Shown here: piece by piece, positions 2,845 through 36,218 of the stretch | How the letters are laid out: every line of letters starts with the position of its first letter | Position numbering within the stretch: position 1 is the first letter of the stretch | From: Nitrospirota bacterium | GTDB taxonomy: Bacteria > Nitrospirota > Thermodesulfovibrionia > Thermodesulfovibrionales > JdFR-85 | DNA length: 64,000 bases | Assembly: GCA_035873375.1 (NCBI GenBank) | Contig: JAYWMQ010000006.1 | Coordinates: forward strand, 65,551 to 129,550 | Direction: 5' to 3' | Translations under genes and position numbers: made by a program | The notes under the pieces: generated by a model | Databases searched by the model: none | What the model saw: the letters and a program-made list of their open reading frames with translations, nothing else | Told to the model about the DNA's origin: nothing

Positions 2845-3732
2845 TTATTTTTCTCCCTTTCTCTTTTTTGCCAGGGGATGGGCATTATCATAGACATCCA
2901 TGAGATGCGTGATGTCCAGATGTGTGTATACCTGCGTGGAGGAGAGAGAGCTGTGTCCGAGGAGCTCCTGAATAACCCTCAGGTCAGCGCCGCTCTGCAG
3001 GAGATGAGTGGCAAAGGTGTGCCTGAGAGTATGTGGCCCAATCTTTCCGCCAAGCCCTGTCTCTCTTGAATATTTTACCACTATCCTTCTGATGCTCCTG
3101 TCCGTCAGGCGGGACCCCTTCCTGTTCAGAAAGATAGCCTGGGTCTCCTTTTTCATCAGAGACCTCTCTATCAGATATACCTTTAATGACTCGATTGCCT
3201 TGTTTCCCACAGGGACTATCCTCTCCTTTTTCCTCTTGCCCCTCACCTTTATCAGGCCATCCCGCATGTTGAGGTCTTCCATATCCATGCCGGCCAATTC
3301 ACTGACCCTTAACCCGCTTGAATAAAGGAGTTCAAGGATTGCCCTGTCCCGCGCCTTCTGAAACCCTATGCCTTCGGGTTTTTCAATTATCGCGAATGTT
3401 TCATCAACCGAAAGAAATCGTGGTAACCTCTTCTGTTGTTTCGGGTTCGGCACCAGGCGGGCCGGGTTTGAGCTTATGTGACTCTCTCTGTGGAGAAATC
3501 TGAAGAATGATCGTAATGTGGCAAGCTGCCTGCTTACTGTAGACCTTTCCATGCCGTCCTTCAGGCGGTGGGCAATAAACCCCCTTATATCACTCAACTC
3601 TATATCTGCCGGAGATTTCCTTACAAGGGTAAAGAATTCCTGGAGGTCCTTCCTGTAGGCCCTCAGGGTGTGAGTGGACGCACCCTTTTCAAGCTCCATA
3701 AACCTCAGAAACTCCTTCATGTATTCATTCAT
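2845..3732 (-). CDS. xerC: Tyrosine recombinase, XerC/XerD type
   Basis: N-terminal SAM-like domain with TLRAYRKDL. Catalytic C-terminus GLRVSEL...HTLRHTFATHLL...LLGHSSLSSTQVYTH. The trmFO-xerC-hslVU order matches the Bacillus gid-codV-clpQY arrangement. Confidence 0.85.
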   Translation of the reverse strand: MNEYMKEFLRFMELEKGASTHTLRAYRKDLQEFFTLVRKSPADIELSDIRGFIAHRLKDGMERSTVSRQLATLRSFFRFLHRESHISSNPARLVPNPKQQKRLPRFLSVDETFAIIEKPEGIGFQKARDRAILELLYSSGLRVSELAGMDMEDLNMRDGLIKVRGKRKKERIVPVGNKAIESLKVYLIERSLMKKETQAIFLNRKGSRLTDRSIRRIVVKYSRETGLGGKIGPHTLRHTFATHLLQSGADLRVIQELLGHSSLSSTQVYTHLDITHLMDVYDNAHPLAKKRKGEK

Positions 3733-5033
3733 TCAACCGCCCTTATATATTCATTCCATGCTGCGAGGGCCTTTTCTACGATATATGCACGCCGCTTTCT
3801 CTTGTCTTTAATCCTGATGTCAGGTGCGGGGAGAAGCCCGAAGTTAATGTTGCTTGGCTGAAAGCCCTCGGGCGGAGATGTTGTAATATAACGGATCAGC
3901 GATCCATGTGCTGATTCCCCGGGCGGTGCAGTAAAGCTCATGCCCTTCAGCCTCCTTGCAGCGTTTATACCGGCAAGAACCCCCATGGCCGTGGATTCAA
4001 TATAACCTTCAACCCCTGAAAGCTGACCAGCAATATAGGTTTCAGGGCTTACCTTGAGAGCAAGGTCGGGGTTCAGAAACATGGGACCATTAATAAAGGT
4101 GTTCCTGTGGATGCTTCCATAGCGCATAAAGACTGCATTTTCAAGCCCGGGGATGAGCCTAAAAACCCTCTTCTGCTCCGGCCATTTAAGGCGTGTCTGA
4201 AACCCTACCATATTATATGCCGTTGCATCCCTGTTCTCAATCCTCAACTGGACGACTGCGTACGGCACGTTCCCTGTGCGGGGATCAGTCAGCCCGACGG
4301 GTTTCATGGGGCCGAAACGCAGGGTGTCCTTTCCCCTCCCTGCCATCACCTCAACAGGCATGCATCCTTCAAAAACCCTTTCATCCTCAAAGGCCCTCGG
4401 GGTTACCATGTCAGCCTCTGAAAGGGCATTATAGAACCTCTCATACTCATCCCTGTCCATCGGACAGTTCAGGTAGTCAGGTTCTCCCTTTCCGTAGCGT
4501 GAGGCCCGGAAAACCCTGGAGTAATCAATGCTGTCTGCCTCTATAATCGGGGCTATGGCATCATAGAAATAGAGGTAATCACCTCCGAGCAGTCTCCTGA
4601 GTGAGTCGGACAGCGCATCTGAAGTCAGAGGCCCGGTTGCAATAATACATGGCCCCCCGGGAATCTCTGCAATCTCTTCCCTTATCACTTCTATCAGTGG
4701 GTGGGTCAATAACCTCTGTGTTATGTATTCGGCAAATAGCTTTCTGTCAACAGCAAGGGCAGAGCCGGCAGGTACGCTGCATTCAGCAGCAGCCTTCATC
4801 AGCAGGGAGCCGGCCATCCTGAGCTCATCCTTGAGGAGTCCTGCCGAGGTAACGGGCTCCTTTGACCTGAGGGAGTTTGAACATACGAGCTCTCCCAGGA
4901 GGTCCGTCTTGTGCGCCCCGGTTGTCTTGTCCGGCCGCATTTCGTATAGTCTTATACTAATCCCTCTCTGAGCTGCCTGCCAGGCTGCCTCACTGCCGGA
5001 AAGTCCTCCACCTATGATTGTAAGTGTTTTCAT
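3729..5033 (-). CDS. trmFO: Methylenetetrahydrofolate--tRNA-(uracil-5-)-methyltransferase TrmFO
   Basis: MKTLTIIGGGLSGSEAAWQAA dinucleotide-binding start and Gid/TrmFO-like body. I place the start at ATG 5033. The track ORF extends a further 72 low-complexity codons upstream and overlaps def. Confidence 0.9.
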   Translation of the reverse strand: MKTLTIIGGGLSGSEAAWQAAQRGISIRLYEMRPDKTTGAHKTDLLGELVCSNSLRSKEPVTSAGLLKDELRMAGSLLMKAAAECSVPAGSALAVDRKLFAEYITQRLLTHPLIEVIREEIAEIPGGPCIIATGPLTSDALSDSLRRLLGGDYLYFYDAIAPIIEADSIDYSRVFRASRYGKGEPDYLNCPMDRDEYERFYNALSEADMVTPRAFEDERVFEGCMPVEVMAGRGKDTLRFGPMKPVGLTDPRTGNVPYAVVQLRIENRDATAYNMVGFQTRLKWPEQKRVFRLIPGLENAVFMRYGSIHRNTFINGPMFLNPDLALKVSPETYIAGQLSGVEGYIESTAMGVLAGINAARRLKGMSFTAPPGESAHGSLIRYITTSPPEGFQPSNINFGLLPAPDIRIKDKRKRRAYIVEKALAAWNEYIRAVE

Positions 5034-5115: not shown

Positions 5116-5625
5116 ATGTCAGTGCTTGAAATAAAGAAATATCCCGACCCTGTATTAAAAAAGAAGGCCCTTTTTGTAGAGAATATAGACGGGGCATTAC
5201 AGGAACTTATTGACGATATGATAGATACCATGTATGATGCCCCAGGCATTGGTCTGGCTGCACCCCAGGTTGGTGAGTCCAGAAGGATTATAGTGGTGCA
5301 TATAAATCTGAAGGAGGAAGCGCACCCGTTGATTGTCCTTGTAAATCCTGAAATAGTTCAGGTTGACGGCAAGGTCGTCTCAGAGGAAGGCTGTCTGAGT
5401 GTTCCGGGTTACGTGTCGAATATTGAGAGGGCCGGGATGGTGCTTGTAAAGGGTTTTGACAGGGAAGGCAGACCCGTGGAGGTTGAGGCGGAAGGTCTGC
5501 TGTCAAGGGCGCTTCAGCACGAGATAGACCATCTTGACGGGATTCTTTTCGTTGACAGGATGAGTCCGATAAAGAGGGAATTTTTCAGGAAACGCTATCT
5601 TAGAAGGATGAGGGAAACAGCCTGA
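5116..5625 (+). CDS. def: Peptide deformylase
   Basis: GIGLAAPQVG, EGCLSVPG and HEIDHLDG, the three canonical deformylase motifs. Confidence 0.95.
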   Translation: MSVLEIKKYPDPVLKKKALFVENIDGALQELIDDMIDTMYDAPGIGLAAPQVGESRRIIVVHINLKEEAHPLIVLVNPEIVQVDGKVVSEEGCLSVPGYVSNIERAGMVLVKGFDREGRPVEVEAEGLLSRALQHEIDHLDGILFVDRMSPIKREFFRKRYLRRMRETA

Positions 5626-5647: not shown

Positions 5648-5770
5648 TATCCGCAGATTTCACAGATTACGCAGTTTTTTTTCTTAAAAGATAACAAACA
5701 GGATTCTAATGACAAACCTCAGAGGCTATTTCTGAGTTTTAATATCTGTGAAATCCGTGTAATCTGCGGA
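5648..5770. repeat. Palindromic intergenic element, copy 1 (arms built from 9-nt CRCAGAT units)
   Basis: Left arm TCCGCAGAT TTCACAGAT TACGCAG (5650-5674). Right arm ATCTGTGAA ATCCGTGTA ATCTGCGGA (5744-5770), in inverted orientation around an AT-rich spacer. Lies between def and fmt. Confidence 0.8.
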
Positions 5771-5802: not shown

Positions 5803-6744
5803 ATGGCGATAATCTTCTTTGGCACTCCATTATTTGCAGTTCCTGCTCTGGAAAAGCTGATATCTTCAGGGGAAGATATTGTGCTCGTTGTGACACAGCC
5901 TGACAGGGTTGGCGGGAGAGGGCACAGGATTATCCCTCCTCCGGTAAAGAGCGTGGCTGAGAGGGAAGGGCTTACAGTTGCTCAGCCCGGCAGTATAAGA
6001 TCTGAGGATTTCATAAACAGGTTAACTGCTCTGAACCCCGAGTTTATAGTAGTTGTGGCTTTTGGCAGGATACTTCCAGAGAGTGTGCTTCAGATTCCCC
6101 TGAGGGGCTGCATCAATGTCCATGCCTCGTTATTGCCCGGATACAGGGGGGCAGCGCCGATCCAGTGGGCTATTATCAGCGGAGACAAAAAGACCGGCAT
6201 TACCACAATGCTGATGGATGAAGGGCTTGACACCGGGGATATTCTCCTCCAGAGAGAAGTGGACATAAGGGATGAGGACAATGCCCGGACACTCTCGGAA
6301 AAACTCTCTGTAGTGGGAGCAGAACTCCTTGTTGAAACACTGAGTGGATTGCGGGCCGGCAAGCTAAAACCCCGTCCACAGCAAGGCGAGCCGAGTTATG
6401 CACCGATTCTGAAGAAAAATGACGGACTGATTGACTGGTCCCTGTCGGCCAGGATGATTTATAACAGGGTAAGGGGGCTCTATCCATGGCCGTGTGCATA
6501 TACGTATTACAGAAAAAAGATGCTTAAACTGCTTAGGGTGGAGGCAATAGAGGGACACGGACAGCCCGGAGAGGTAGTGCATAAGGGCAAGGGGGAATTG
6601 GTTATTGGTACCCCTGAGGGCCTCGTAAAGATACTCGAGGTTCAGATGGAAGGCAGAAAACCGATGGATATCAAGGCCTTTTTGCAGGGCATCGGGAGAG
6701 ACATCAGAAAGGGAGACAGGTTTGGCGGGCTACAGGATAATTAG
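5803..6744 (+). CDS. fmt: Methionyl-tRNA formyltransferase
   Basis: IIFFGTP.FAVP...VVTQPDR..GRG...INVHASLLPGYRGAAPIQWAII, classic Fmt. The def-fmt pair is conserved. Confidence 0.95.
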   Translation: MAIIFFGTPLFAVPALEKLISSGEDIVLVVTQPDRVGGRGHRIIPPPVKSVAEREGLTVAQPGSIRSEDFINRLTALNPEFIVVVAFGRILPESVLQIPLRGCINVHASLLPGYRGAAPIQWAIISGDKKTGITTMLMDEGLDTGDILLQREVDIRDEDNARTLSEKLSVVGAELLVETLSGLRAGKLKPRPQQGEPSYAPILKKNDGLIDWSLSARMIYNRVRGLYPWPCAYTYYRKKMLKLLRVEAIEGHGQPGEVVHKGKGELVIGTPEGLVKILEVQMEGRKPMDIKAFLQGIGRDIRKGDRFGGLQDN

Positions 6745-7246: not shown

Positions 7247-7280
7247 GCATGGTTGTGATATAATTCATGCATTGAAGATA

Positions 7281-7355
7281 TGGAGTGTTGGAGGATTGAA
7301 GAGCTGGAGTATTGGAGGGTTGGATTTTTTCATCACTCCACCACTCCATCACTCC
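7281..7355. repeat. Heptamer-based inverted repeat (TGGAGTG-like units / CACTCCA units)
   Basis: Left arm TGGAGTGTTGGAGG...CTGGAGTATTGGAGGGTTGGA, a T6 loop, then right arm CAT-CACTCCA-C-CACTCCA-T-CACTCC. Ends about 15 nt before the osmC-like RBS GAGGAGG. Confidence 0.7.
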
Positions 7356-7380
7356 GCATTAGATTCTTGAGGAGGTGGAG

Positions 7381-9632: not shown

Positions 9633-10309
9633 GGAATAAACTTCTTCTTTTTGATATTGACGGCACCCTGATTGATTCGGGACGGGCTGGTACGAGGGCT
9701 CTGGACAAGGTCTTTCTCAATCTCTTTGGCATCAGGGATGCATTTAAGGGGATCAGGATGGCCGGCAAAACCGATATCCAGATAATCAGGGAGTGCCTGA
9801 GGGTCCACGGGATACCTGACAGTGTTGGTGAAATAGAGGGGGTAGTCGGAATGTATATAGATTTATTAACTGAAGAGATAGAGAACCCGTGGCGAAGTGT
9901 AATGGCCGGGGTTGTTGATCTTCTTGAAACCCTCAAGGCAGACGGAATACCCATGGGACTGTTAACCGGAAACATAGAGACGGGTGCAAGGATAAAGCTT
10001 GACTCCTTTGGTCTCAATCAATATTTTACTGCCGGTGCATTCGGCAGTGACCATGAAGACAGGGATATGTTGTTGCCGATTGCGGTTGCAAGATTCTCCG
10101 CGCTTGGTATAAACGTTCCTCCAGAAAGGTGTATTGTTATAGGTGATACCCCCAGGGATGTAAGATGTGCAAGAGTCCACGGGGCTTCGTGTATTGCCGT
10201 CAGTACGGGATCATACAACAAAGAGGCACTTATGGAAGCAGGTGCAGACCTTGTGCTGGAGAGTCTGGAGAACAGGGAAGCCTGCCTGAGCTTTATGTCA
10301 ACAGCCTAA
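9629..10309 (+). CDS. HAD-superfamily hydrolase (phosphoglycolate-phosphatase-like)
   Basis: LLLFDIDGTLIDS motif I, LLTGN motif II, VIGDTPRDVRCA motif III/IV. ATG 9629 forms an ATGA overlap with the permease stop. The track start is GTG 9617. Confidence 0.85.
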   Translation: MRNKLLLFDIDGTLIDSGRAGTRALDKVFLNLFGIRDAFKGIRMAGKTDIQIIRECLRVHGIPDSVGEIEGVVGMYIDLLTEEIENPWRSVMAGVVDLLETLKADGIPMGLLTGNIETGARIKLDSFGLNQYFTAGAFGSDHEDRDMLLPIAVARFSALGINVPPERCIVIGDTPRDVRCARVHGASCIAVSTGSYNKEALMEAGADLVLESLENREACLSFMSTA

Positions 10310-10532: not shown

Positions 10533-13427
10533 ATGCTGAAAAAAATGTGTTTCAAGACTTTCATGGGGGTGCTTATTGTCCTTTTTGCCGGATTGTGGAT
10601 TACCGGTGATGTTGCAGATGCGAGTTCCGGAGGTATGAAGCAAAGAGAGCATCATAGACACCACTCTCCCGGCGCTTCTTACAACGTAGGCGGCATAGTA
10701 AACGAACTTGGCGATGGTGAAACGGTCGTTCTTCTAAACAACGGCAGGGATAAACTTGAAATTACGGCAAACGGTGTTTTTGCCTTCTCCACACCGGTTT
10801 CCGACTTGGCCACCTACGATGTTACGGTTGAAACTCAGCCGAGCAACCAATATTGCCGCATCAATAACGGCAGCGGAACAATAAACGGTGAGGACATAAC
10901 CGATATAACCATTAGGTGTTCTATCTTTTCCGTTGCCATTGCAGCTGGGAACAACCATGCAGTAGTGCTTAAAAACGACGGCACAGTATGGACATGGGGA
11001 AATAACAACCTAATGCCGTTTCAGGTAATCGGACTTACAGACGTTATCGCCATTGCGGCCGGAGATGGTCATACAGTCGCGCTTAAAAGCGACGGTACAG
11101 TATGGACCTGGGGTGATAACAAATATGGACAACTGGGTAATGGAACAAGAACACGCAGTTATACTCCTGTGCAGGTATGCGATACCGGTGAGACCGCTCC
11201 GTGCACCAACTTCCTAACGGATGTAATCGACATCACCGCTGGAGGTGACAATATAGTGGGTATGGCGCATACAGTTGCTCTTAAGTCGGACGGCACGGTG
11301 TGGGCATGGGGAAGTAACCAGTACGGCCAGCTGGGAAATGGAACGACGACAAGAAGTACCACGCCGGTTCAGGTAAGCGGTCTTACAACTGTTGTCGCAA
11401 TTGCTGCAGGAAAAAATTATACCATTGCGCTTAAAGCCGACGGTACGGTAAGGGCTTGGGGAAGGAACTGGCCCGGTACGCTGGGAGATGGGACGACAGA
11501 TGAGAGCACCACGCCGGTGGAGGTAAGCGGCCTAACGGATATTAATGCAATTGCGGCCGGAAACGATCATACCCTCGCGCTTAAAATCGACGGCACGGTA
11601 TGGGCCTGGGGAGGGAACATCCATGGTCAGCTGGGAGACGGAACGAGTACATATAAAATCACGCCGATTCAGGTAAGCGGCCTTACTGACGTTGACGCAA
11701 TAGCCGCCGGATGGGGGCACAGCATCGCACTTAAATCCGATGGTACAACCTGGACGTGGGGAGATAACAAATATGGCCAGTTGGGAAGAACTGCAACTTA
11801 TTACTGGGATTATTACACGCCTGCACCGGTAGACTCCCTCATGGACGTAATCGGTATTGCGGCCGGAGGCTCTTTAGCTATAGAGAACACAGCGTTCTCT
11901 CAAGGGTACAGTCTATCGCTTAAATCTGACGGCACGGTCTGGGCATGGGGAGATAATCAATACGGCCAGTTGGGCGATGGCACAAGGACAAACAGCCTTA
12001 CGCCGGTACAAGTGTTGGGTGAAACAGCTCCCTACATTGTGGACAACTACAGTTTGGGCGGTACGGTAAACGGTCTTGTTGATGGAGAAACTATTGTTCT
12101 TCAAAACAACGGCGTGAACGACCTGACAATAACGGCAGACGGTGTTTTTAGCTTCTCCACACCGGTCTCTGACTTGGCCGCCTATAACGTTGCGATTTCA
12201 ACCCAGCCGGATAGCCGGTTTTGCAGGGTCGATAACGACAGCGGAACAATAAACGGCGAGGATGTAACCGACATCTCGGTTACATGCTTCGACTTTTTTG
12301 CGGATGTAACTGCTGTTGCGTCAGGAAGTCGTTTTACCATTGCGCTTAAGGCTGATGGTACGGTATGGGCTTGGGGAGCTGGAGGCGCTCTGGGAGACGG
12401 AACAGAGACAAGTAGTGCCACACCTGTGCAGGTTTGTGATGCCGGAGAAACCGCTCCCTGCTCCAGTTTTCTCACGGATGTCGCTGCTATCGGTGCCGGG
12501 GATTCCAATGCTGTCGCGCTTAAAACCGACGGTACGGTCTGGGCCTGGGGAAATAACAGTGATGGACAGCTGGGTGACGGTACAACGACGAGCAGCAGGG
12601 TGCCCATTCAGGTCGACATAACCGCCATTGCCAGCGGAGCTGCTCATACAATTATTCTTAAAACCGACGGTACGGTCTGGGCCTGGGGATGGAACTACTA
12701 TGGCCAGCTGGGAGACGGAACGACAATAGATCGCACCACGCCTGTGCAGGTAAGCGGACTTACAGACGTAATCGCCATTGCGGCTGGAGTTTATCATAAC
12801 GTTGCGCTTAAAAGCGACGGCACGGTCTGGGCCTGGGGGTATAATGGTCTGGGCCAGCTGGGAGACGGAACGACAATAGATCGCTTAACGCCTGTTCAGG
12901 TAAGCGACCTCTCAAACGTAACCGTCATTGCGGCAAAGCCCTATTCTGCTCTCGCTCTGAAGAGCGAAGGTACAGTGTGGACGTGGGGAGCAATAGGACG
13001 TCTGGATATAACGACAACTGAAACCTGTAATAACAAGCCTTGCTCAACAACGCCTGTGCAGGCAAACGACCTCACGGACGTAACTGATATCGCTGCTGGC
13101 CGCGGTTTTAGTGATAATACAATTGTACTTAAGAGCGACGGCACAGTCTGGGCTTGGGGAGATAATGGGTCTGGCACGCTGGGAGATGGGACGACAACAG
13201 ATAGCTCCACGCCTGTGCAGGTAAACGAACTCACGGATGTAATCGACATCACGGCCGGAAATGGTCATGCAATTGCGCTTAAAACCGACGGTACGGTATG
13301 GGCCTGGGGAAATAATTCCTGGAGTCAGTTGGGGTTGGCAGTGACTACAAGCTGCCCCGACATAGATATGGGTGTGTTTTACTATCCGTGCTCCACTACG
13401 CCCGTACCGGTCCTGGTAACGCCGTAA
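10533..13427 (+). CDS. Secreted RCC1-repeat protein: two (beta-sandwich module + 7-bladed RCC1 propeller) units
   Basis: Signal peptide. Fourteen repeats of about 50 aa of the form AAGxxHxxALKxDGTVWAWGxNxYGQLGDGTT..TPVQV. Two roughly 80-aa modules at aa 50-130 and about 506-586. Confidence 0.9.
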   Translation: MLKKMCFKTFMGVLIVLFAGLWITGDVADASSGGMKQREHHRHHSPGASYNVGGIVNELGDGETVVLLNNGRDKLEITANGVFAFSTPVSDLATYDVTVETQPSNQYCRINNGSGTINGEDITDITIRCSIFSVAIAAGNNHAVVLKNDGTVWTWGNNNLMPFQVIGLTDVIAIAAGDGHTVALKSDGTVWTWGDNKYGQLGNGTRTRSYTPVQVCDTGETAPCTNFLTDVIDITAGGDNIVGMAHTVALKSDGTVWAWGSNQYGQLGNGTTTRSTTPVQVSGLTTVVAIAAGKNYTIALKADGTVRAWGRNWPGTLGDGTTDESTTPVEVSGLTDINAIAAGNDHTLALKIDGTVWAWGGNIHGQLGDGTSTYKITPIQVSGLTDVDAIAAGWGHSIALKSDGTTWTWGDNKYGQLGRTATYYWDYYTPAPVDSLMDVIGIAAGGSLAIENTAFSQGYSLSLKSDGTVWAWGDNQYGQLGDGTRTNSLTPVQVLGETAPYIVDNYSLGGTVNGLVDGETIVLQNNGVNDLTITADGVFSFSTPVSDLAAYNVAISTQPDSRFCRVDNDSGTINGEDVTDISVTCFDFFADVTAVASGSRFTIALKADGTVWAWGAGGALGDGTETSSATPVQVCDAGETAPCSSFLTDVAAIGAGDSNAVALKTDGTVWAWGNNSDGQLGDGTTTSSRVPIQVDITAIASGAAHTIILKTDGTVWAWGWNYYGQLGDGTTIDRTTPVQVSGLTDVIAIAAGVYHNVALKSDGTVWAWGYNGLGQLGDGTTIDRLTPVQVSDLSNVTVIAAKPYSALALKSEGTVWTWGAIGRLDITTTETCNNKPCSTTPVQANDLTDVTDIAAGRGFSDNTIVLKSDGTVWAWGDNGSGTLGDGTTTDSSTPVQVNELTDVIDITAGNGHAIALKTDGTVWAWGNNSWSQLGLAVTTSCPDIDMGVFYYPCSTTPVPVLVTP

Positions 13428-13745: not shown

Positions 13746-16181
13746 ATGCTGAAAGGAGCGAGGTTCAGGACTTTCATAGGGGTGCTTATTCTTCTTTTTG
13801 CCGGATTGTGGATTACCGGCTGTACTGAAGAGATAGGTTCAATGGGGATGAAGCATAAGTACGATCATGACAGTGCGGATGAGACAAAGGTCATTGCCGT
13901 AGCGGGTGGAAACTTTTACTCCGTTGAGCTTAAATCAGACGGTACGGTCTGGACATGGGGAAGGAACGAATCCGGCCAGCTGGGAGACGGGACAACGATA
14001 GACAGTCCGGCGCCGATACAGATAAGCGGACTCACGGATGTAACCGCCGTTGCAGGCGGGGGTTACCATGCAATGGCGATTAAAGATGACGGCACGGTGT
14101 GGGCATGGGGAAGTAACAATGCAGGTCAGTTGGGCGATGGAACGACGACAGACAGGACTACGCCGGTGCAGGTGATCGGGCTTGCGGACGTGACCGCCGT
14201 TGCTGCCGGATGGAATCATAGCATAGCACTCAAAGCCGATGGCACGGTGTGGGTATGGGGCTGGAATGGAGGAGGCCTGCTGGGAGTGGAAACAACCGAA
14301 AAATGCGAGTTTGGCTCTCCAGCCCTGTCTTGTTCCACCACGCCGGTGCAGGTAAGTGAACTTACGAATATAACCGCTATTGCAGCCGGAAGTTACTATT
14401 CCATAGCACTCGAAGATGACGGTACGGTCTGGACCTGGGGAAATAACTATGCAGGTCAGTTGGGGAGAACAGAAGACGGAAACACACCTACACCAGTGGC
14501 CTCCCTTACGGATATAACCGCTATTGCAGCCGGAGCTTATCATACCGTAGCGCTTAAAGCCGATGGAGCTGTATGGGGATGGGGGAGCAATGAACACGGT
14601 CAGCTGGGAGACGGTACGGCGACATGGAACTCCATCACACCGGTACAAGCAAGCGGACTTACGGATGTAATCGCCATCACCGCCGGAGGCAAAACAAATT
14701 CGGGGCATACCATGGCGCTTAAAGCTGACGGTACCGTATGGGCATGGGGAAGCAATGAACACGGCCAGCTGGGTGTAATAACAACGGAAGTTTGTGAAAT
14801 ATCCCTGACTGCTGGTCGAACCGGGACTACTTATTCTAATCTTTGTTCCACCACGCCGGTGCAGGTAAGCGATTTTCCTGACATAACTGCCATTACAGCT
14901 GGATATTACCATAGTATTGCGGTAAAAGAGGATGGCACAGCATGGGCATGGGGAGATAACAAATACGGCCAGGTGGGGGCGGCAACAACTGAAGTTTGCG
15001 GTTATGGGGATTTTGATTGCAGTCCCACACCCGTACCTGTAAGGAGCAAAGTACCAGGCACATTCAGCATAGGTGGTACGGTAAGCGGTCTTGCTGGAAC
15101 GTTGGTCATTCAAAACAATGGAGGAGATGATCTGGTAATCACGGAGAATGGCTCTTTTACCTTTGCAACAGAACTTGAGGACCTGGATGTTTATGATATA
15201 GGGATTTTAACCCAACCTGATGGTCAGACATGCGAAATCACAAGTGCCAATACTGGAAGGGTCAATGCAACGGACGTAACGGACATAGAGATTGTATGCC
15301 CCTATCCCTTTACGGAAGTCGTTGCTATTGCTGCCGGAACTTTTCATTCCATTGCTCTCAGAACCGACGGTACGGTCTGGACGTGGGGACAAAACTTTAA
15401 CGGTCAGTTGGGTGATGGGACAAGAGATAACAGCCCTGTACCTGTACAGGTCGGATTGTCGGATGTTACCGCAATTGCTGCGCGAAATACTGGTAGCATA
15501 GCGCTTAAAAGCGACGGCACAGTATGGACGTGGGCGAGAGATGGTTACTTTATACCCGTACAGTTAAATGGACTTACGGATATAAGCGCCATCGCTGGGG
15601 GAGGCAACCACTCTCTTGCTATCAAAGCCGTTGACACGCTGTGGGCGTGGGGAAAGAATTTCTCTGGCCAGCTGGGAGACGGAACAACGACGGACAGCTA
15701 CACGCCTGTAAAGGTATCCGGTCTTACAGACGTAAACGCCGTTGCCGGGGGACTCTACCATACCGTAGCACTTAAAAGCGACGGTACGGTGTGGACGTGG
15801 GGATGGAACGAATACGGACAGTTGGGAGACGGAACGACGATAGACAGCCATATCCCTATACAGGTGAGCGGCCTTACGGACATTGTCGCAGTAGCGGCCG
15901 GAAGCGGTCACACAGTGGTTCTTAAAAGCGATGGTGCGGTGTGGGCATGGGGTGGAAACTCTGACGGCCAGCTGGGAGATGGAACGACGATAGACAGCCG
16001 TATCCCTATACAGGTGAGCGGCCTTACGGACATTGTCGCAGTAGCGGCCGGAAGTGGTCATACAATGGCTCTTAAAAGCGATGGCACGGTGTGGGCATGG
16101 GGAAGTAACGCCTCCGGGCAGTTGGGAGATGGAACGACAACAAACAGTACCACACCTGTACAGGTAGTACTGAGACCATAA
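13746..16181 (+). CDS. RCC1-repeat lipoprotein: propeller + beta-sandwich module + propeller
   Basis: Signal peptide ending in lipobox ITGC (Cys26). Thirteen RCC1 repeats. One 80-aa module, FSIGGTVSGLAGTLVIQNNGGDDLVITENGSFTFAT...DVTDIEIVC. Confidence 0.9.
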   Translation: MLKGARFRTFIGVLILLFAGLWITGCTEEIGSMGMKHKYDHDSADETKVIAVAGGNFYSVELKSDGTVWTWGRNESGQLGDGTTIDSPAPIQISGLTDVTAVAGGGYHAMAIKDDGTVWAWGSNNAGQLGDGTTTDRTTPVQVIGLADVTAVAAGWNHSIALKADGTVWVWGWNGGGLLGVETTEKCEFGSPALSCSTTPVQVSELTNITAIAAGSYYSIALEDDGTVWTWGNNYAGQLGRTEDGNTPTPVASLTDITAIAAGAYHTVALKADGAVWGWGSNEHGQLGDGTATWNSITPVQASGLTDVIAITAGGKTNSGHTMALKADGTVWAWGSNEHGQLGVITTEVCEISLTAGRTGTTYSNLCSTTPVQVSDFPDITAITAGYYHSIAVKEDGTAWAWGDNKYGQVGAATTEVCGYGDFDCSPTPVPVRSKVPGTFSIGGTVSGLAGTLVIQNNGGDDLVITENGSFTFATELEDLDVYDIGILTQPDGQTCEITSANTGRVNATDVTDIEIVCPYPFTEVVAIAAGTFHSIALRTDGTVWTWGQNFNGQLGDGTRDNSPVPVQVGLSDVTAIAARNTGSIALKSDGTVWTWARDGYFIPVQLNGLTDISAIAGGGNHSLAIKAVDTLWAWGKNFSGQLGDGTTTDSYTPVKVSGLTDVNAVAGGLYHTVALKSDGTVWTWGWNEYGQLGDGTTIDSHIPIQVSGLTDIVAVAAGSGHTVVLKSDGAVWAWGGNSDGQLGDGTTIDSRIPIQVSGLTDIVAVAAGSGHTMALKSDGTVWAWGSNASGQLGDGTTTNSTTPVQVVLRP
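15831..16130 (+). repeat. Near-identical 150-bp tandem duplication (one RCC1 blade)
   Basis: 15831-15980 versus 15981-16130. The first 74 nt differ at 1 position. Encodes DGTTIDS(H/R)IPIQVSGLTDIVAVAAGSGHT... twice. Confidence 0.9.
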
Positions 16182-25999: not shown

Positions 26000-27907
26000 T
26001 CACTGTTTCCATCGATTAAGATGATGTTTATATAAATAACTTGCACTTTGATAATATGTTATTGCATCTGATGCATCCTTGTCTAAAGGAGCAATTTCTT
26101 TATATTTGATGCCGCGAAGACTCTGATTAACTATACTATACTCGTGAACACTCCTGTCTGGTTCCAATACAAGAAGCCTCCTGTTTCTTAAAAACCCCAA
26201 TTTCTGGTAAGTTCCAATAAATGCTCTTTCATAAAACTTTTCATTAAGTATATTCTTGCCATAAAATTTACTTTCATAACTCCAGTTCATAATTGAAAAA
26301 AGAGTAGGCATAAGATCAATTTGGGAAGATAGTTTACTTATAGTATTTGGTTCTATAATATCTGGTGCATAAATTAAAAAAGGAATCTTATATCGCCAGG
26401 CAGGTAATGATGTTTTCCCGGCACTTCCTCCGTTATGGTCAGCTACAATAACAAAAATAGTATTTTTAAACCAAGGCCTGGATGCTGCATTTTTTAAGAA
26501 TTTATCAATAGCATAATCTGTATATTTTACTCCTCCCGCTCTTCCCGTGTGTGAGGGTATATCTATTTTTCCATCAGGGTAGGTATATGGTCTATGATTG
26601 GAGGTTGTCATTATGTAGTTAAAGAATGGCTTCCCTTTTTTATATGATTTATCTGATTCTTTTAGTGCCTTGTTAAACAAATCTTCATCACATACTCCCC
26701 AAGCATTAGAAAATGTTATTTCATCTTTGGTCATATTCGTTCTATCAACAATATAAAAGCCGTTATGTGAAAAAAAATCATTCATATTATCAAAATAACC
26801 ATATCCTGCATAAATAAATTTATTTTCATATCCTTTTTCTTTAAATACAAACCCCGAAGAAAACATATTATAGTTATCCGGTCTTTTAACAATACTTCTT
26901 CCAGGTGTTGGAGGAACAGATAAAGTAACAGCTTCCATCCCTCTAACCGTTCTTGTTCCTGTTGCATAAAAATTATCGAAAAATAGAGATTTCTTAGCCA
27001 GTTTATCTAAATACGGGGTTAAGTCCCTATTGTCGCCAAAAATCCCCATATATTCTGCACTAAGACTCTCAACCATAATCAACATAATATTATATTTTAA
27101 TTCTTTGCCATCTTTATTTATAAACTGCGAGGAGTTATCATCGAATCCAGACAAGATCTTTAAATTAGACATTACAGTTTTTATATTCTCAGTCTTATAG
27201 AACTCATCATAGTCTAATGTATTATTTCTAAAGGCAGAGAATAGAGAATAAAGTCCATTTTTGGATAATTCATTGTCATATTGATTATTAGAGATATTTG
27301 CTAAAGATTGCTTATCAAGTATATTAAAAAACAAGACAGGTAAAACAATCAAAACTGCTACAACTTTCAATCGTTGCAGATAACCTTGAGTAGAATCAAA
27401 TGCAAAATCAAGAATAGATGTTTTTTTATAAATAAAATAAAAAGTAATAGAACTAATTATAAAAACGATGGTAAGAAGCAATGGGATTGGATATGATTCA
27501 AGGATATTATTTATGACCTCATGCGTATATACAAGATAATCAACAGCAATAAAATTAAACCTTTTTCCAAACTCATCCCAAAAGAACCATTCTGAAAAAC
27601 CATTAAAAACGAGTAGATTAATCTGAATAAACAAAAACAGCCAGATTATGTATTTATGAAATTTGTTGTTAAATAACTTATTGGGCATCAAAGCAATATA
27701 TAGCGCAAAAGGTGCTACAAAATACATAGCCGCAACAAAATCATAAATTAATCCCACTAAAAACAGTTTTATTAGTACAAATATTCCAAAATCAACCTGA
27801 TCAAAATCGGCAAACAGTAATATTATTCTTGAGGTAAAGCTAATAGCGATAAATATCACTATTAGCAAAGTTACTAAAGCAAAGCGATTTTTTATATATT
27901 TTGACAT
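26000..27907 (-). CDS. LTA-synthase/phosphoglycerol-transferase family sulfatase-fold membrane protein
   Basis: Five N-terminal TM helices followed by an alkaline-phosphatase-superfamily domain (MVESLSAEYMG...TGTRTVRGMEA...VADHNGG). Very AT-rich. Confidence 0.85.
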   Translation of the reverse strand: MSKYIKNRFALVTLLIVIFIAISFTSRIILLFADFDQVDFGIFVLIKLFLVGLIYDFVAAMYFVAPFALYIALMPNKLFNNKFHKYIIWLFLFIQINLLVFNGFSEWFFWDEFGKRFNFIAVDYLVYTHEVINNILESYPIPLLLTIVFIISSITFYFIYKKTSILDFAFDSTQGYLQRLKVVAVLIVLPVLFFNILDKQSLANISNNQYDNELSKNGLYSLFSAFRNNTLDYDEFYKTENIKTVMSNLKILSGFDDNSSQFINKDGKELKYNIMLIMVESLSAEYMGIFGDNRDLTPYLDKLAKKSLFFDNFYATGTRTVRGMEAVTLSVPPTPGRSIVKRPDNYNMFSSGFVFKEKGYENKFIYAGYGYFDNMNDFFSHNGFYIVDRTNMTKDEITFSNAWGVCDEDLFNKALKESDKSYKKGKPFFNYIMTTSNHRPYTYPDGKIDIPSHTGRAGGVKYTDYAIDKFLKNAASRPWFKNTIFVIVADHNGGSAGKTSLPAWRYKIPFLIYAPDIIEPNTISKLSSQIDLMPTLFSIMNWSYESKFYGKNILNEKFYERAFIGTYQKLGFLRNRRLLVLEPDRSVHEYSIVNQSLRGIKYKEIAPLDKDASDAITYYQSASYLYKHHLNRWKQ

Positions 27908-27979
27908 GTATTCCCTTTTGTGTATAATGCGGAATTGAGCTGCAATACCGTAAGTGTTGTCAGCTCCAACGATTGGTAT

Positions 27980-28019
27980 ACGCCCGGCACGGACATGAGC
28001 TAATGGGGTGACCTGTATG
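27980..28019. repeat. 40-nt direct repeat, right copy, followed by two short hairpins
   Basis: See 23621-23660. Followed by TGCGT-GCA-ACGCA and GGCAGGA-AGTC-TCCTGCC. Confidence 0.75.
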
Positions 28020-28430
28020 CGTGCAACGCACAGGCAGGAAGTCTCCTGCCGTTAGAGCAGACGTTATAATTTTAAATATAATTATTTGGTAACAACTTAC
28101 TTCTTTGGGTGGATTTCAATTACGTTGCCTGAATTCCTGTTTTTTTGCATTGATTCTTTTGTCTTTTCAAGCAAAAGAGGAGACACATTCCATCTCGATA
28201 ACCTCGATTTTCTGATGATTGTTACATATAACCGATACCGGTAATTGTACAGTTTTTGTATGTTTTCAAAGTATACACCATTAAAATCTTAATTGACAAC
28301 ACGGATATCATGATATTTGTAATGATTTCCGGCAGTTGAAATGTATTTTGGTCATATGTTAGTATTCGGTTATGGAGGCAATTGCCGAAAAGACTGTAGA
28401 GACTCTCTATGATTTGTGCAACATCATTTG

Positions 28431-30014
28431 ATGAATTATAACTCCAGGCCGGCAATCAGTGTCCTGATTACTCTCGCATTTACGTTGCTGCTCCTCTCCT
28501 GTACATCTTCAAACCGTCTTCAGGGATATGTCTATTACAGATTGAAAGCCTCCCCCTCCACCCTTGATCCGGCACTGATTTCAGATGTTGCCAGTGCCAC
28601 AATTGCTGCCAAACTCTTTAACGGGCTTGTCAGGTTAAAGGGTAATCTCGAGATCGCCCCTGACATTGCACAGAAATGGAGTATTTCAAAGAATGGTCTG
28701 AGATATACTTTTTTCCTGAAAAAGGGAGTACAATTCCCTAACGGTCGTGAGGTGAGGGCCCGGGATTTCAAGTATTCCTTTGAACGTGTGCTTAATCCTG
28801 CAACAAAATCACCAAACACATGGGTATTTGACAAGGTTGAAGGGGTAAGGGAATTTTTAGAGGGCAGGGCAGGGGAGGTTAAGGGTTTTAAGGTAAAGAG
28901 TGATTACGTATTTGAGATTATCCTAAAAAAACCCTTCTCCCCGTTTCTGAGTATGCTTACCATGACCCCTGCCTATGTTGTTCCCCGGGAAGAGGTGGAA
29001 AAGTGGGGCGTTGATTTTTCAAGCCATCCTTCAGGCACCGGCCCCTTTACCTTAAAGGAATGGCTGCCTGACAGGGAGCTGCTGCTGGCAAGAAGGACCG
29101 ATTACTTTGACGGCAACAGCAGGGTCAGGGGGATTGCTTACAGGATAATCGCCGAGGACCTGACTGCTGTTACTGAATTTGAACTGGGCAATATAGATGT
29201 CATTGCATTGCCTGCATCGGCATATTCGAGGTTTAAGAATGACAGAAAATGGAGCAGATATATCATATCCCGTGAAGGACTGAATACCTACTACCTTGGA
29301 CTGAACTCATCAAGGCCACCATTTAATGACCCTGAACTCAGAAGGGCGGTTTCATATGCAATAGACAGGGAGAAGATTTTAAATACCTTCTATGAAGGCC
29401 GGGGCAAGCTGGCTGTGGGGCCTGTCCCTGACCTGCTCAGGAAATGGGATATAAAGACTCCGGTTCGGTATGATCCCAAACTGGCAGGGAAGATAATCCG
29501 GGACAAGGGTTTGAAGGGGATGAAGGTGGATATGTATGTGAGTGCGGACAAGGAGGTGGTGGACCTGGCAGAGATAATCCAGGCATATCTTGCCAGGGTT
29601 GGGATCAATGTTAATATAAAGCAGTTGGAGTGGAGCGCGTACAAAGAGGCGGTGAATAAAGGGGAACCTGATATGTTCTGGCTGAGCTGGTGGGCAGACT
29701 ATCCTGACCCTGAAAACTTTCTCTTTCCCCTGTTTCACTCCAGGAATATCGGGGCGGGAGGTAACAGGGTAAGGTATATCAACAAAGAGGTTGACTCACT
29801 GATTGAAAAGGGGCAGTATTCAGTTAATGAAAAGAAGAGGGATTACTTTTATCAAAAGGCTGAAGAGATTATAATAAAAGACTCCCCCTGGGTATTTTTC
29901 TGGCATAAGACCGATTATGTAATAACGCAGCCGTGGATAAGGGGCTGCAGGGTGTATCCTGTTTACAGCATGGATAAGGGGATGGAAATAAAGACTGATT
30001 TAGCTGTGAATTAA
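28431..30014 (+). CDS. ABC transporter substrate-binding lipoprotein, family 5 (peptide/nickel, DppA/OppA-like)
   Basis: Signal peptide with lipobox LLSC. YRLKASPSTLDPA...AKLFNGLVR...WSAY...FWLSWWADYPDPENFL, typical of SBP_bac_5. Start placed at ATG 28431. Confidence 0.9.
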   Translation: MNYNSRPAISVLITLAFTLLLLSCTSSNRLQGYVYYRLKASPSTLDPALISDVASATIAAKLFNGLVRLKGNLEIAPDIAQKWSISKNGLRYTFFLKKGVQFPNGREVRARDFKYSFERVLNPATKSPNTWVFDKVEGVREFLEGRAGEVKGFKVKSDYVFEIILKKPFSPFLSMLTMTPAYVVPREEVEKWGVDFSSHPSGTGPFTLKEWLPDRELLLARRTDYFDGNSRVRGIAYRIIAEDLTAVTEFELGNIDVIALPASAYSRFKNDRKWSRYIISREGLNTYYLGLNSSRPPFNDPELRRAVSYAIDREKILNTFYEGRGKLAVGPVPDLLRKWDIKTPVRYDPKLAGKIIRDKGLKGMKVDMYVSADKEVVDLAEIIQAYLARVGINVNIKQLEWSAYKEAVNKGEPDMFWLSWWADYPDPENFLFPLFHSRNIGAGGNRVRYINKEVDSLIEKGQYSVNEKKRDYFYQKAEEIIIKDSPWVFFWHKTDYVITQPWIRGCRVYPVYSMDKGMEIKTDLAVN

Positions 30015-30076
30015 CACAAATGGGCACGAATTAAAGGATTAGGATTCATGGGAAAGACAAGACAGAAGACTTTTGG

Positions 30077-30170
30077 CCGCAGATTTACGCAGATAAACAC
30101 AGATTTTTCAGGATTTTTAAAATATTAAGTTCCTAACAAATATCTGCGCCTATCTGTGAAAATCTGCGGC
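30077..30170. repeat. Palindromic intergenic element, copy 2
   Basis: CCGCAGAT TTACGCAGAT AAACACAGAT ... ATCTGCGCC TATCTGTGA AAATCTGCGG. The right arm contains the GTG that the ORF track uses as the permease start. Confidence 0.8.
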
Positions 30171-31139
30171 GGAAAATTTTTTAAAGGAGGCTTTGCTATC
30201 AAGGGTTACATTTTAAAGAGGCTTATACTCCTGGTTCCCCTGATGTTTGCAATCACACTGTTTGCCTTTTTCCTGCTCAAGGCGCTTCCGGGAGACCCGG
30301 TGCTGGGGCTTGTGGGAGAGCGGGCCAGCCCGGAGATAATTGAAAGCATAAGGAAAGAGATGGGCACTGACAAGGGTTTTGTTAGCCAGTATATAGGTTA
30401 TCTGAAGCTGCTGCTTAAGGGAGACCTTGGCAGGTCTTATTACACCAACAGGGATGTACTGACGGATATATCTCTGAAATTCCCCAATACCATGATGCTT
30501 GCCTTTGCCGCCATGCTTGTATCCGTTCCCTTAGGTATAGCCCTCGGATTCCTGTCTGCCCTGTCAGCCAACAGGAGGTCACGATTCCTTGAAAAACTTA
30601 TTGATACCATCTCAATCTCCGGATTGAGTATTCCCGTGTTCTGGAGTGCAATAATCATCATGATGATCTTCAGCCTTAAATTAAAACTCTTTCCTCCCTC
30701 AGGTACGGGGGATATAAGGTTTCTGGTCCTTCCTGCGGTTGTCCTTGCCATACCTGCTACGGCAACGCTGGCAAGGGTCACAAAGACGACCGTAATAGAT
30801 ATACTGAAGATGCCCTATATAACCACAGCGAGGTCAAAGGGGCTGTCTTTAACGAGAATAAACCTGATTCATGTACTGAGAAATGCCATTATCCCCATAG
30901 TCACCATTATCGGCCTTGATTTCGGCAGCTATCTAAACGGTGCAGTTGTTACCGAGACCATATTCGGCTGGGACGGCCTGGGCAGGTTTACCATGGAAGG
31001 GATAATAAAGAGGGATTATCCGGTGATAATGGGATGCATAATTGTCGGTACCGTGGTTTTCGTTATTGTAAATCTGATTACCGATGTAATCTATCAATAC
31101 CTTGACCCGAGGATAAGGCTCAATGTCAAAAAGGGGTAA
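30156..31139 (+). CDS. ABC transporter permease, DppB/OppB type (start uncertain)
   Basis: ILKRLILLVPLMFAITLFAFFLLKALPGDP and ITTARSKGLSLTRINLIHVLRNAIIPIVT. The GTG at 30156 lies in the repeat. An RBS AAAGGAGG at 30183-30190 suggests a later non-canonical start near 30198-30212. Confidence 0.85.
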   Translation: MKICGGKFFKGGFAIKGYILKRLILLVPLMFAITLFAFFLLKALPGDPVLGLVGERASPEIIESIRKEMGTDKGFVSQYIGYLKLLLKGDLGRSYYTNRDVLTDISLKFPNTMMLAFAAMLVSVPLGIALGFLSALSANRRSRFLEKLIDTISISGLSIPVFWSAIIIMMIFSLKLKLFPPSGTGDIRFLVLPAVVLAIPATATLARVTKTTVIDILKMPYITTARSKGLSLTRINLIHVLRNAIIPIVTIIGLDFGSYLNGAVVTETIFGWDGLGRFTMEGIIKRDYPVIMGCIIVGTVVFVIVNLITDVIYQYLDPRIRLNVKKG

Positions 31140-31929: not shown

Positions 31930-32048
31930 CTTTCCGGTTTACCATAGTCCTGCCATACAAGGGTAACCACTACCTCGGACCGAAATTCAGGCTTCACCGC
32001 TATTCTTATTTTACTTTCCCCGAATCGTCAATAGTCAATCGAAAATCG

Positions 32049-36052: not shown

Positions 36053-36070
36053 TTGAAAAAATAAAGAATA

Positions 36071-36172
36071 ATCCGCAGATTACACAGATTAACGCAGATT
36101 AGAAAGATTAAAAAGGGTTTATAGAGGGACTAAAATTATAAAAATCTGCGAAATTTGTGTAATCTGCGGATT
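36071..36172. repeat. Palindromic intergenic element, copy 3 (best-formed)
   Basis: AATCCGCAGAT TACACAGAT TAACGCAGAT TAGAAAGAT ... ATCTGCGAA ATTTGTGTA ATCTGCGGATT. The terminal 11 nt are a perfect inverted repeat. Confidence 0.85.
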
Positions 36173-36218
36173 AGATATGTTTATAAGTATTAGAGTTTTT
36201 ATTTTGATGGAGGAATGG

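Follow-up and report, generated by a model that had tools for sequence, protein, structure and literature searches.

What are the long palindromes built from short phased repeats that recur in the operon gaps of this Nitrospirota genome, and do they belong to a kind of element that is already known? An earlier note on the 64-kb stretch of DNA analysed here, which we call the window, had reported three copies of a repeat assembled from CRCAGAT units. We found these three copies to be real and to constitute the window's three strongest inverted repeats. Their positions in the window are as follows.

5650-5770, no strand assigned: element copy 1, in the def/fmt gap, with the outer pair T5650/A5770
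5651-5676: left arm of copy 1, CCGCAGAT-tt-CACAGAT-ta-CGCAGtT
5677-5743: middle of copy 1, 67 nt
5718-5745, plus strand: small terminator-like hairpin in the middle of copy 1, CTCAGAGGCTATTTCTGAG and then TTTTAATATC, a match to consensus only
5744-5769: right arm of copy 1, ATCTGTG-aa-ATCCGTG-ta-ATCTGCGG
5116-5625 and 5803-6744, plus strand: genes flanking copy 1, peptide deformylase (def) and methionyl-tRNA formyltransferase (fmt)
30076-30170, no strand assigned: element copy 2, in the gap between a peptide-binding protein gene and a permease gene
30077-30104: left arm of copy 2, CCGCAGAT-tta-CGCAGAT-aaa-CACAGAT
30105-30141: middle of copy 2, 37 nt
30142-30169: right arm of copy 2, ATCTGCG-cct-ATCTGTG-aaa-ATCTGCGG
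28416-30014 and (30156 or 30198)-31139, plus strand: genes flanking copy 2, family-5 solute-binding protein (peptide or nickel) and ABC permease
30015-30031, plus strand: left arm of an outer hairpin layer around copy 2, CACAAAT-ggg-CACGAAT, whose right arm is missing in the window
36069-36173, no strand assigned: element copy 3, in the leuA/leuC gap, with a TAAT/ATTA extension of the stem
36073-36099: left arm of copy 3, CCGCAGAT-ta-CACAGAT-taa-CGCAGAT, with a weak fourth unit reaching to about 36108
to 36143: middle of copy 3, 44 nt
36144-36169: right arm of copy 3, ATCTGCG-aa-ATTTGTG-ta-ATCTGCGG
34526-36052 and 36219-37478, plus strand: genes flanking copy 3, 2-isopropylmalate synthase and the large subunit of isopropylmalate dehydratase

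All three copies sit in short gaps inside co-directional plus-strand operons, spanning the distance from one stop codon to the next Shine-Dalgarno sequence, and the element can overlap a start codon, as it does at the permease gene after copy 2. The arms agree largely with what the earlier note had described. Three units per arm were borne out, while the fourth unit that it allowed for is only weak and confined to copy 3; inverted heptamers close all three copies, as expected from the mirrored right arm that it proposed; and the shared termini that it recognized are CCGCAGAT, which opens each copy, and ATCTGCGG, which closes it. Its claim that only the arms are conserved between copies also held, as the middles in the window are AT-rich and mutually dissimilar, with measured lengths of 37-67 nt rather than the 40-70 nt given there. 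Upon scanning the element middles for promoters, we obtained background level only. Another tandem-unit palindrome or array lies in the window at 7271-7360, at a similar kind of site. The LeuC protein encoded in the window has a 100% identical counterpart in a Nitrospirota metagenome-assembled genome (MAG), with Dissulfurispira as the nearest named relative; for Def, an exact-protein look-up gave no record.

The signal that sets these elements apart from chance was found to be phased clustering. The bare heptamer CRCAGAT was not enriched in the window (20 occurrences versus 14 expected), whereas the phased pair CAGAT-N2-3-CRCAG occurred eight times, in all eight cases inside the three elements, and shuffled sequences yielded a mean of 0.42 and never eight. 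A three-unit scan of the window with tolerance for mismatches returned exactly the six arms plus one register-shifted match overlapping the left arm of copy 3, compared to 0.08 matches when the same scan was run on shuffled sequence. As single-stranded DNA, copies 1, 2 and 3 have predicted folding energies of -19.3, -22.4 and -28.5 kcal/mol, with z-scores of -3.8, -5.5 and -11.0, respectively.

Far from being limited to the window, an outcome that the earlier note had considered damaging to its reading, copies proved very numerous in relatives and far beyond. In a scan of one genome per species for the three-unit arm pattern, we found at least 120 matching genome loci, where rough chance expectation is about 17, as well as at least 120 loci in viral contigs. 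Because plain arrays are not rare in viral contigs, with triple arrays of a shuffled heptamer present at 30 viral loci, the hairpin layout itself was tested instead: the pattern CGCAGAT-N2-3-CGCAGAT-N13-43-ATCTGCG matched 64 viral loci versus 2 for the shuffled-heptamer control. A wider superfamily that would include arrays of CGCAAAG or CACTCCA is not claimed, as their plain-array counts (58 and 29) lie near that of the shuffled control (30).

The genome matches listed include Verrucomicrobiota, Planctomycetota, Acidobacteriota, Bacteroidota, Chloroflexota, Cyanobacteria, Nitrospirota, Gemmatimonadota, Desulfobacterota, Lentisphaerota, several Beta-, Gamma- and Zetaproteobacteria, and a few archaeal MAGs, with Geothrix, Pedobacter, Chryseobacterium, Salinisphaera, Microcoleus, Lyngbya, Bacteroides and Oligosphaera as cultured carriers. 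The credible archaeal case is a 448 kb Methanoperedens contig in which an archaeal-type SRP54 gene lies beside the arms, and two further "archaeal" MAG contigs with arms are ambiguous. Among these at least 120 matches listed, there were no Bacillota, Alphaproteobacteria or enterics and one doubtful actinomycete; none of 5,426 complete E. coli genomes contained the element, and records of cultured phages were nearly devoid of it. The viral loci are genuine phage DNA, carrying terminase, portal, capsid and baseplate genes, and a few megaplasmids contain the element, unannotated. Across all these taxa the architecture is constant, with the terminal CCGCAGAT, three units, and spacers of 2 and then 3 nt. 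One 36 kb phage contig holds about twelve copies, a number that may indicate a useful function instead of selfish or neutral spread.

Statistics from about 500 arms in the genome and viral loci define the family more closely. Three units were present in 326 arms, two in 137 (mostly decayed) and four in 9; the first spacer measured 2 nt in 339 of 472 cases and the second 3 nt in 233 of 335. The resulting end module of about 30 bp reads (T/G)A(T/A/G)C-CGCAGAT-N2-CRCNGAT-N3-CRCNGAT, with a 9+10 bp phase, and occurs in two consensus forms, tTtATC-CGCAGAT-Ta-CGCAGAT-t.a-CGCAGAT and tttTtAAC-CGCAGAT-gaA-CGCAGAT-gAA-CGCAGAT. The preceding C is restricted to the outermost unit of the arm, and the base before CC is T in 54%, A in 27% and G in 18%. 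Beyond the outermost unit the stem usually continues for 1-2 nt, occasionally for up to 10, and it is bordered by T runs at its 5' end and by A runs at its 3' end. Whole elements are non-coding and about 75-160 bp long; their middles are mostly 13-100 nt, with the distance between arms ranging from 13 to about 300 bp, and about half of all arms are solo arms with no partner detected.

Arm pairs within 300 nt of each other were convergent in 120 cases and divergent in 5 (the three non-convergent orientations giving 5, 9 and 20), while pairs more than 300 nt apart were randomly oriented. This convergent excess indicates that the inverted pair is the unit of the element. Whole elements moreover multiply within genomes: middles were common only to copies of one genome or contig, sometimes in flipped orientation (three copies at L268, and L216/L256, L202 and L282), and never across taxa. 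For the three copies at L268, similarity is bounded by TTTTGAAC...GTTCAAAA and the flanks are unrelated. Both observations are in line with the earlier reading of the repeat as REP/BIME- or MITE-like. Since the window copies have no common middles, we infer from these other genomes that the element multiplies as a unit in the Nitrospirota genome as well. Like the earlier note, which had seen no target-site duplication in the window, we found none at any offset in 113-147 elements, and in 113 elements offsets 0-7 showed no direct repeat of at least 3 bp. A target duplication of TA or of 3 bp was rejected, as the two sides are uncorrelated (TA lies one base outside CC/GG on both sides in 24 elements versus 20 expected if independent), and the CTA that flanks copy 1 on both sides is an isolated case.

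Comparison with relatives, which the earlier note had suggested, revealed that the element is lost, decayed or fitted with a replaced middle between close relatives. The def/fmt copy has orthologues in L012 and L121. At this site, a relative with 88% Def identity has a swapped middle and re-ordered arm units, and the terminator-like hairpin of copy 1 is kept in L012, while the region is rearranged in L121. Copy 2 has an orthologue with a homologous middle in L321; in L322, L324 and L325 the element is missing or has decayed. At this binding-protein/permease site, one relative reads cagCC-ataggtcttc-GCGGctg where filled genomes read agCC-GCAGAT...ATCT-GCGGctg, and another has a decayed right arm only. 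In L321, the CGCAGAT hairpin is nested in an outer CACGAAT hairpin that has its downstream partner, ATTCGTG-ctt-ATTCGTG. L325 is without both outer arms, and in the comparison of the two the CACGAAT arms flank sequence already present in the relative, a state that a single contiguous insertion would not yield. At leuA/leuC, relatives of 95% LeuC identity or more carry the element, with the exception of L537. At 95-97% LeuC identity we encountered three states, namely the element with a different middle, that same different middle together with a nested second and unrelated palindrome, and a fivefold TGGAGnnn array in place of the absent element; relatives at 91-93%, like Dissulfurispira, have unrelated spacers and either no element or a decayed one. 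Elements have been gained, lost, left to decay and re-filled between close relatives. A search for empty sites by simulated junctions at all loci recovered no clean filled/empty pair. As to whether the element moves, the indirect evidence from sequence comparison says yes.

Such rapid turnover could also be a by-product of local mutation, in which replication slippage and template switching at quasi-palindromes would generate the structures with no dedicated protein or transposition. This would account for the shuffling of units between orthologous arms, for the middles that are flipped or replaced, for the variable length of the stem extension, and for arms in which all units carry the same variant (ATCGGCG three times or ATCAGCG three times). 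Other tandem-unit palindromes and arrays at similar sites (at 7271-7360 in the window and in L537) point in the same direction, as do the 30 viral loci at which plain tandem arrays of an arbitrary heptamer occur. Local mutation cannot, however, explain why many phyla share one heptamer, one terminal CCGCAGAT and one three-unit 9+10 layout, and it leaves unexplained both the excess of 64 hairpin loci over 2 for the shuffled control and the dispersed copies with homologous middles within single genomes. We therefore regard it as highly improbable.

The main rival is a role in RNA, with the element acting in cis as an mRNA hairpin in the manner of E. coli REP, either as a stability barrier or as an RNase III site that uncouples the cistrons. 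It ranks first among the rivals because of the operon positions and the abundance in phages: all three window copies fill gaps in co-directional operons, and many copies lie in the intergenic gaps of phages. In the classical REP example, a binding-protein gene is expressed above its permease genes, and copy 2 lies exactly at a binding-protein/permease junction. The strong predicted folds would suit such a role, as would the terminator-like stem and following T run in the middle of copy 1. Against it stands the pattern of mismatches between partner arms, in which transversions dominate (407 versus 263 transitions) and changes compatible with G·U pairing show no excess on either strand (121 top versus 142 bottom) and no bias with the direction of the flanking gene. 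Solo arms were likewise found in both orientations relative to genes, and foreign copies occur in every gene context, including between divergent genes, as judged from crude ORF calls. Furthermore, the heptamer is kept beyond the needs of pairing, with position 4 often a systematic mismatch; the site is not retained in relatives at 91-96% LeuC identity; the 5' T runs and 3' A runs are the reverse of an intrinsic terminator; and there is no Rfam match. The arm mismatches thus do not look like those of a selected RNA helix and place the signal at the level of DNA. We consider a function in RNA to be rather unlikely as the reason for the element. Putative effects on the flanking transcripts are plausible, but the comparative data argue against them as the reason why these elements exist.

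What is maintained is above all a motif. Among partner arms that were located by way of the outermost unit and that matched the three-unit search pattern only incompletely, agreement was found in 65-85% of cases at heptamer positions 1, 3, 5, 6 and 7, in 54-60% at position 4 and in 52% in the spacers, and some right arms consist entirely of ATCGGCG or entirely of ATCAGCG opposite a CGCAGAT left arm, producing the identical mismatch in every unit. The higher agreement in the heptamer than in the spacers or at position 4, together with these repeated mismatches, indicates a constraint on C-R-C-N-G-A-T and its phase more than on complementarity. A motif that is kept better than the complementarity of the arms is the signature of sequence-specific recognition on DNA, and the earlier suggestion of iterated protein-binding sites is favoured by it.

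Recognition on DNA might also serve the host, with the duplex heptamers forming operator or architectural arrays for a global regulator or nucleoid-associated protein and being kept for the benefit that they bring. Three heptamers at fixed spacing in a 9-10 bp phase would fit this reading, and so would a motif conserved above arm complementarity, a DNA-level signal independent of orientation, and a motif shared across phyla as with parS or the DnaA boxes of conserved proteins. Yet orthologous positions are not conserved in close relatives, the neighbouring genes are functionally unrelated, and the arms lie anywhere between 13 and about 300 bp apart, without favouring any phase. Copies in the same genome moreover have non-functional middles in common, as duplicated DNA would, and whole large clades are devoid of the element, including the 5,426 E. 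coli genomes. Host operators seem an unlikely explanation to us, one that fits the phased motif but not the turnover described above.

If a protein reads the arms, no candidate for its gene was found near them. The window contains no transposase or recombinase genes, as the earlier note had stated for a cognate transposase, and no cognate gene came to light in about 1.9 Mb of related loci around 500 arms. The catalytic motif of serine recombinases was absent from every ORF of 240 loci and from the window, and no HUH/Y1 signature occurred in the window or in about 1.9-2 Mb of loci, a sample in which a single-copy gene would rarely be caught. Three all-against-all clusterings of neighbouring ORFs gave no enriched candidate family, returning only ABC ATPases and the terminase, portal and capsid proteins of phages, and the phage contigs with high copy numbers have only structural proteins, and no small protein, in common. 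Where inverted arms lie 0.35-4 kb apart, they enclose ordinary phage or host ORFs (baseplate J and ORFs with no Pfam match), as seen in the DNA near known copies that this search covered. Genes for four-helix-bundle proteins (23S rRNA intervening-sequence or Avd-like) were rejected as partners, since they adjoin arms in 2 loci only and are flanked there by other repeats. With no qualifying gene near the copies, the element is to be considered non-autonomous and its enzyme, if any, to be encoded elsewhere.

The earlier note had not recognized a described family, and our searches likewise brought up no Rfam family, annotation or paper. At the gathering score, Rfam gave 0 matches for the window and 8 further loci, and permissive searches with E-values up to 10 returned only microRNA-like matches at chance level. 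Literature searches by motif strings and descriptors found no description of the element, and neither the RepRanger paper nor the GTAG/CGTC paper covers a phased-CRCNGAT element. A relation to the DnaA box was rejected, as only the terminal unit resembles TTATCCACA and does so only with R = A. Overall, the elements are probably mobile DNA of an apparently undescribed family.

REP, REPIN, MITE and other small palindromic repeats are as a rule lineage-specific, with REP families usually confined to a species or genus, so that their enzymes and functions have been worked out species by species. The present element resembles REPINs and REP-BIMEs, which RAYT (Y1 HUH) transposases mobilise, in being short, non-coding and extragenic, in consisting of an inverted doublet unit that folds into a long hairpin, in its lack of target-site duplication and frequent position inside operons, in having middles less conserved than arms, and in its solo units and its mosaic or nested clusters beside other palindromes. 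As in REPINs, the inverted doublet is the replicating unit, judging from the orientation counts (120 versus 5), the common middles and the strong predicted folds. In contrast to REPs, in which every unit is by itself an imperfect palindrome of 20-40 nt, its arms are direct triple heptamers that are not self-complementary and form a hairpin only together, and a single sequence family spans many phyla, archaea and phages. REPs are further defined by an unpaired GTAG or CGTC tag at one end (PMC3733652), which is absent from the present ends, both being (T/G)A(T/A/G)C-CGCAGAT. A further mark of REPINs is a RAYT gene that is present once in the genome and has the repeats on its flanks. Related 'TIR repeats' flank RAYT-like TIRYT genes (Di Nocera et al. 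2013, PMC3733652), whereas we never saw a RAYT or TIRYT gene adjoining a copy. Similarities to MITEs (Correia/NEMIS, RUP, ERIC, Nezha) comprise a non-coding length of 75-160 bp, inside the 50-500 bp of MITEs, inverted repeats of about 30 bp at the termini, multiple copies per genome with common interiors and in either orientation, and intergenic sites co-transcribed with their neighbours. Unlike MITEs, the element has no target-site duplication, no parent insertion sequence with matching ends was found in the DNA near known copies, its middles go down to 13 nt and are too short for duplex synapsis of the ends, and the ends are made of three phased iterons. The REP- or MITE-like kind proposed earlier is thus supported, whereas the strict definition of a REP (tag and self-complementary arms) and the classical definition of a MITE (duplication) both fail.

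For the phased ends, the closest likeness is to IS607. Its TnpA is a serine transposase with a MerR-like winged-helix domain, an end of the IS607-family element IS1535 contains four helically phased 9-bp motifs on which a protein filament nucleates, and the A/T-rich spacers are contacted by the protein wing (eLife 2018, PMC6188088; Mob DNA 2013, PMC4058570). Both elements have several short direct repeats in helical phase per end, A/T-rich spacers, G/C dinucleotide termini, no target-site duplication and a very wide range that includes archaea and viruses. IS607 nevertheless requires that both junctions present an identical GG crossover dinucleotide in direct orientation (PMC4058570; PMC6188088) and is without true terminal inverted repeats, while the present ends form a symmetric CC...GG inverted repeat; IS607 motifs also vary from element to element, and IS607 ends adjoin a serine transposase gene (tnpA, with or without tnpB), while no serine recombinase lies near any of our copies. 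Integron attC sites, which have invariant AAC...GTT outer boxes and form cassette arrays beside an integrase gene, were rejected, because these boxes do not match (A before CC in only 27%) and the copies in the window sit within core operons where no integrase is found. In the inverted terminal repeats of AAV, GAGC tetramers make up the Rep-binding element and are read by a multimeric protein, and parvovirus/AAV and other HUH-Rep origins resemble our element as DNA hairpins with tandem short repeats in a duplex stem. These are origins for the replication of linear viral genomes rather than dispersed chromosomal repeats, and with no sequence similarity the comparison is an analogy of design only. 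Since the element fails defining features of each known family, we file it as working like them rather than as being one of them. A palindromic interspersed repeat is a known kind; what is unusual here is that the ends are built from iterons and that one family extends over phyla, an archaeon and phages.

We consider it an even chance that the element is a small non-autonomous repeat of the REPIN/MITE-like kind, acting at the DNA level and selfish or neutral for its host, with arms that are putative triple sites for a protein acting in trans. The three phased heptamers, lying on nearly the same face of the helix, would form a cooperative array for one transposase or recombinase encoded elsewhere. 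Because the middles of 13-30 nt in many elements are too short for duplex looping, the most likely way for the arms to meet is in a hairpin folded from a single strand. Such folding would perhaps occur on the lagging-strand template, after which the protein may read three duplex sites in the stem. REPIN/RAYT and IS200/IS605 systems act on folded single strands and leave no duplication. Horizontal transfer, with phages as carriers, would account for the spread between phyla. Within the window, the elements may persist in intra-operon gaps because these gaps tolerate them, and any effect on def-fmt, opp-like or leu mRNA would be a side effect.

It is a tentative and somewhat unlikely possibility that the arms are the array of a hairpin enzyme family, HUH-type or unclassified, that is new to repeats and possibly domesticated. 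Its protein would then be common to Planctomycetota, Verrucomicrobiota, Acidobacteriota, Bacteroidota, Cyanobacteria, Chloroflexota, Nitrospirota, some Proteobacteria and some methanogenic archaea, but lacking in Bacillota, Actinomycetota, Alphaproteobacteria and enterics; the elements would be the first known case of a single sequence family of mobile hairpin DNA crossing phyla and domains, with phages as its vehicles. In a more extreme variant, a templated repeat-adding activity at DNA ends would write the three-unit arrays, which would explain arms on both sides of pre-existing sequence.

The wider meaning of the element lies in its range. One end design of 30 bp recurs in isolates and assembled genomes of more than 12 phyla, at least one archaeon and many phage contigs, which implies either a recognition protein of unusually conserved specificity or very effective horizontal spread, and the design itself provides a simple searchable marker for finding that protein. 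For annotation, the element is both a nuisance and an opportunity, as it fills operon gaps and marks intergenic sites of fast turnover.

The copy of the CGCAGAT element (an inverted repeat with arms of three phased CRCNGAT heptamers) that lies between the peptide-binding protein and permease genes, at 30076-30170, is enclosed by an outer hairpin layer, whose left arm, CACAAAT-ggg-CACGAAT, occupies 30015-30031. Among the loci from other genomes and viral contigs used for comparison (L numbers), the outer right arm, ATTCGTG-ctt-ATTCGTG, which the window lacks, is kept only in L321 (within the region at about 3440-3700), and in a further relative, L325, both outer arms are missing while the enclosed sequence is present. 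Such an arrangement is hard to explain as a single contiguous insertion. At the inner layer, the sole canonical in-frame start codon of the permease gene, GTG at 30156, falls within the right arm of the element, and a strong AAAGGAGG at 30183-30190 is followed by ATC at 30198 rather than by a canonical start (window 30156-30200). The element may overlap the annotated permease coding region, the placement of the start being uncertain.

Layering of hairpins was also found elsewhere, as several CGCAGAT hairpins (L007, L009, L019, L079, L092 and L110) contain a second hairpin of CGCAAAG or CGCGAAG units. In viral contigs, plain CGCAAAG arrays occurred at 58 loci, only about twice the 30 loci of the shuffled control, that is, plain triple arrays of a shuffled heptamer. 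Genes for four-helix-bundle proteins (Avd-like, or of the kind known from 23S rRNA intervening sequences) adjoin CGCAGAT arms in L120 (435-960) and L009 (2850-3640), where they are flanked by other tandem-unit inverted repeats, built of GGGACAnAG and CAGCG units. As this concerns only 2 of 240 loci, we do not claim an association of these genes with the arms.

The window holds further repeats, of which the AACCCGC, GTCAGT and AATCGTC arrays have no inverted partner, and the 150-nt repeats fall within two large ORFs (10533-13427 and 13746-16181):

11289-11711, 12657-12989 and 15771-16138: 150-nt (50-residue) tandem repeats, 73-86% matching
32023-32054: AATCGTC array, 4.6 units, at the end of a gene
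41396-41431: GTCAGT array, 6 units
41463-41492: perfect AACCCGC heptamer array, 4.3 units

The stretch 26000-28000, with a GC content of 31% versus about 46% for the rest of the window, carries a minus-strand ORF of 635 residues with a sulfatase domain and may be of foreign origin.

Besides the CGCAGAT element, the window has another type of palindrome made of tandem units. It is flanked by a DUF116 gene and an OsmC-like gene, with the ribosome-binding site of the latter immediately downstream:

7271-7360: SD-like units in 8-nt phase, TGGAGTG, GGAGGAT, TGGAGTA and GGAGGGT; opposite arm CACTCCAcCACTCCAtCACTCCG

Plain CACTCCA arrays were no commoner in viral contigs than the shuffled control (29 versus 30 loci).

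Both other gaps that house the element in the window contain repeats in other organisms. Between def and fmt, an unrelated organism (L147; Def 52% identical) has a solo array without a left arm, and a further organism (L123) has a palindrome, GTCATTCCGA...TCGGAATGAC, that resembles one, GTCATTaCGAGCGGAGCgAAGCAATC...GATTGCTTcGtCGCT..CTCGCAATGAC, which some relatives carry within the middle of their leuA|leuC CGCAGAT element and which the leuA|leuC site of L534 lacks:

L147, 826-890: ATCTGTG-ata-ATCTGTa-ataa-ATCAGTG-att-ATCTGTG, solo array
L321, about 9785-9885: nested palindrome
L535/L536, about 4530-4630: nested palindrome

The leuA|leuC gap of L537 (5740-5815; LeuC 96% identical) is without the CGCAGAT element that the window has there, and holds a fivefold TGGAGnnn array that continues into the leuC Shine-Dalgarno sequence. 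Close relatives therefore carry different repeat modules at one site.
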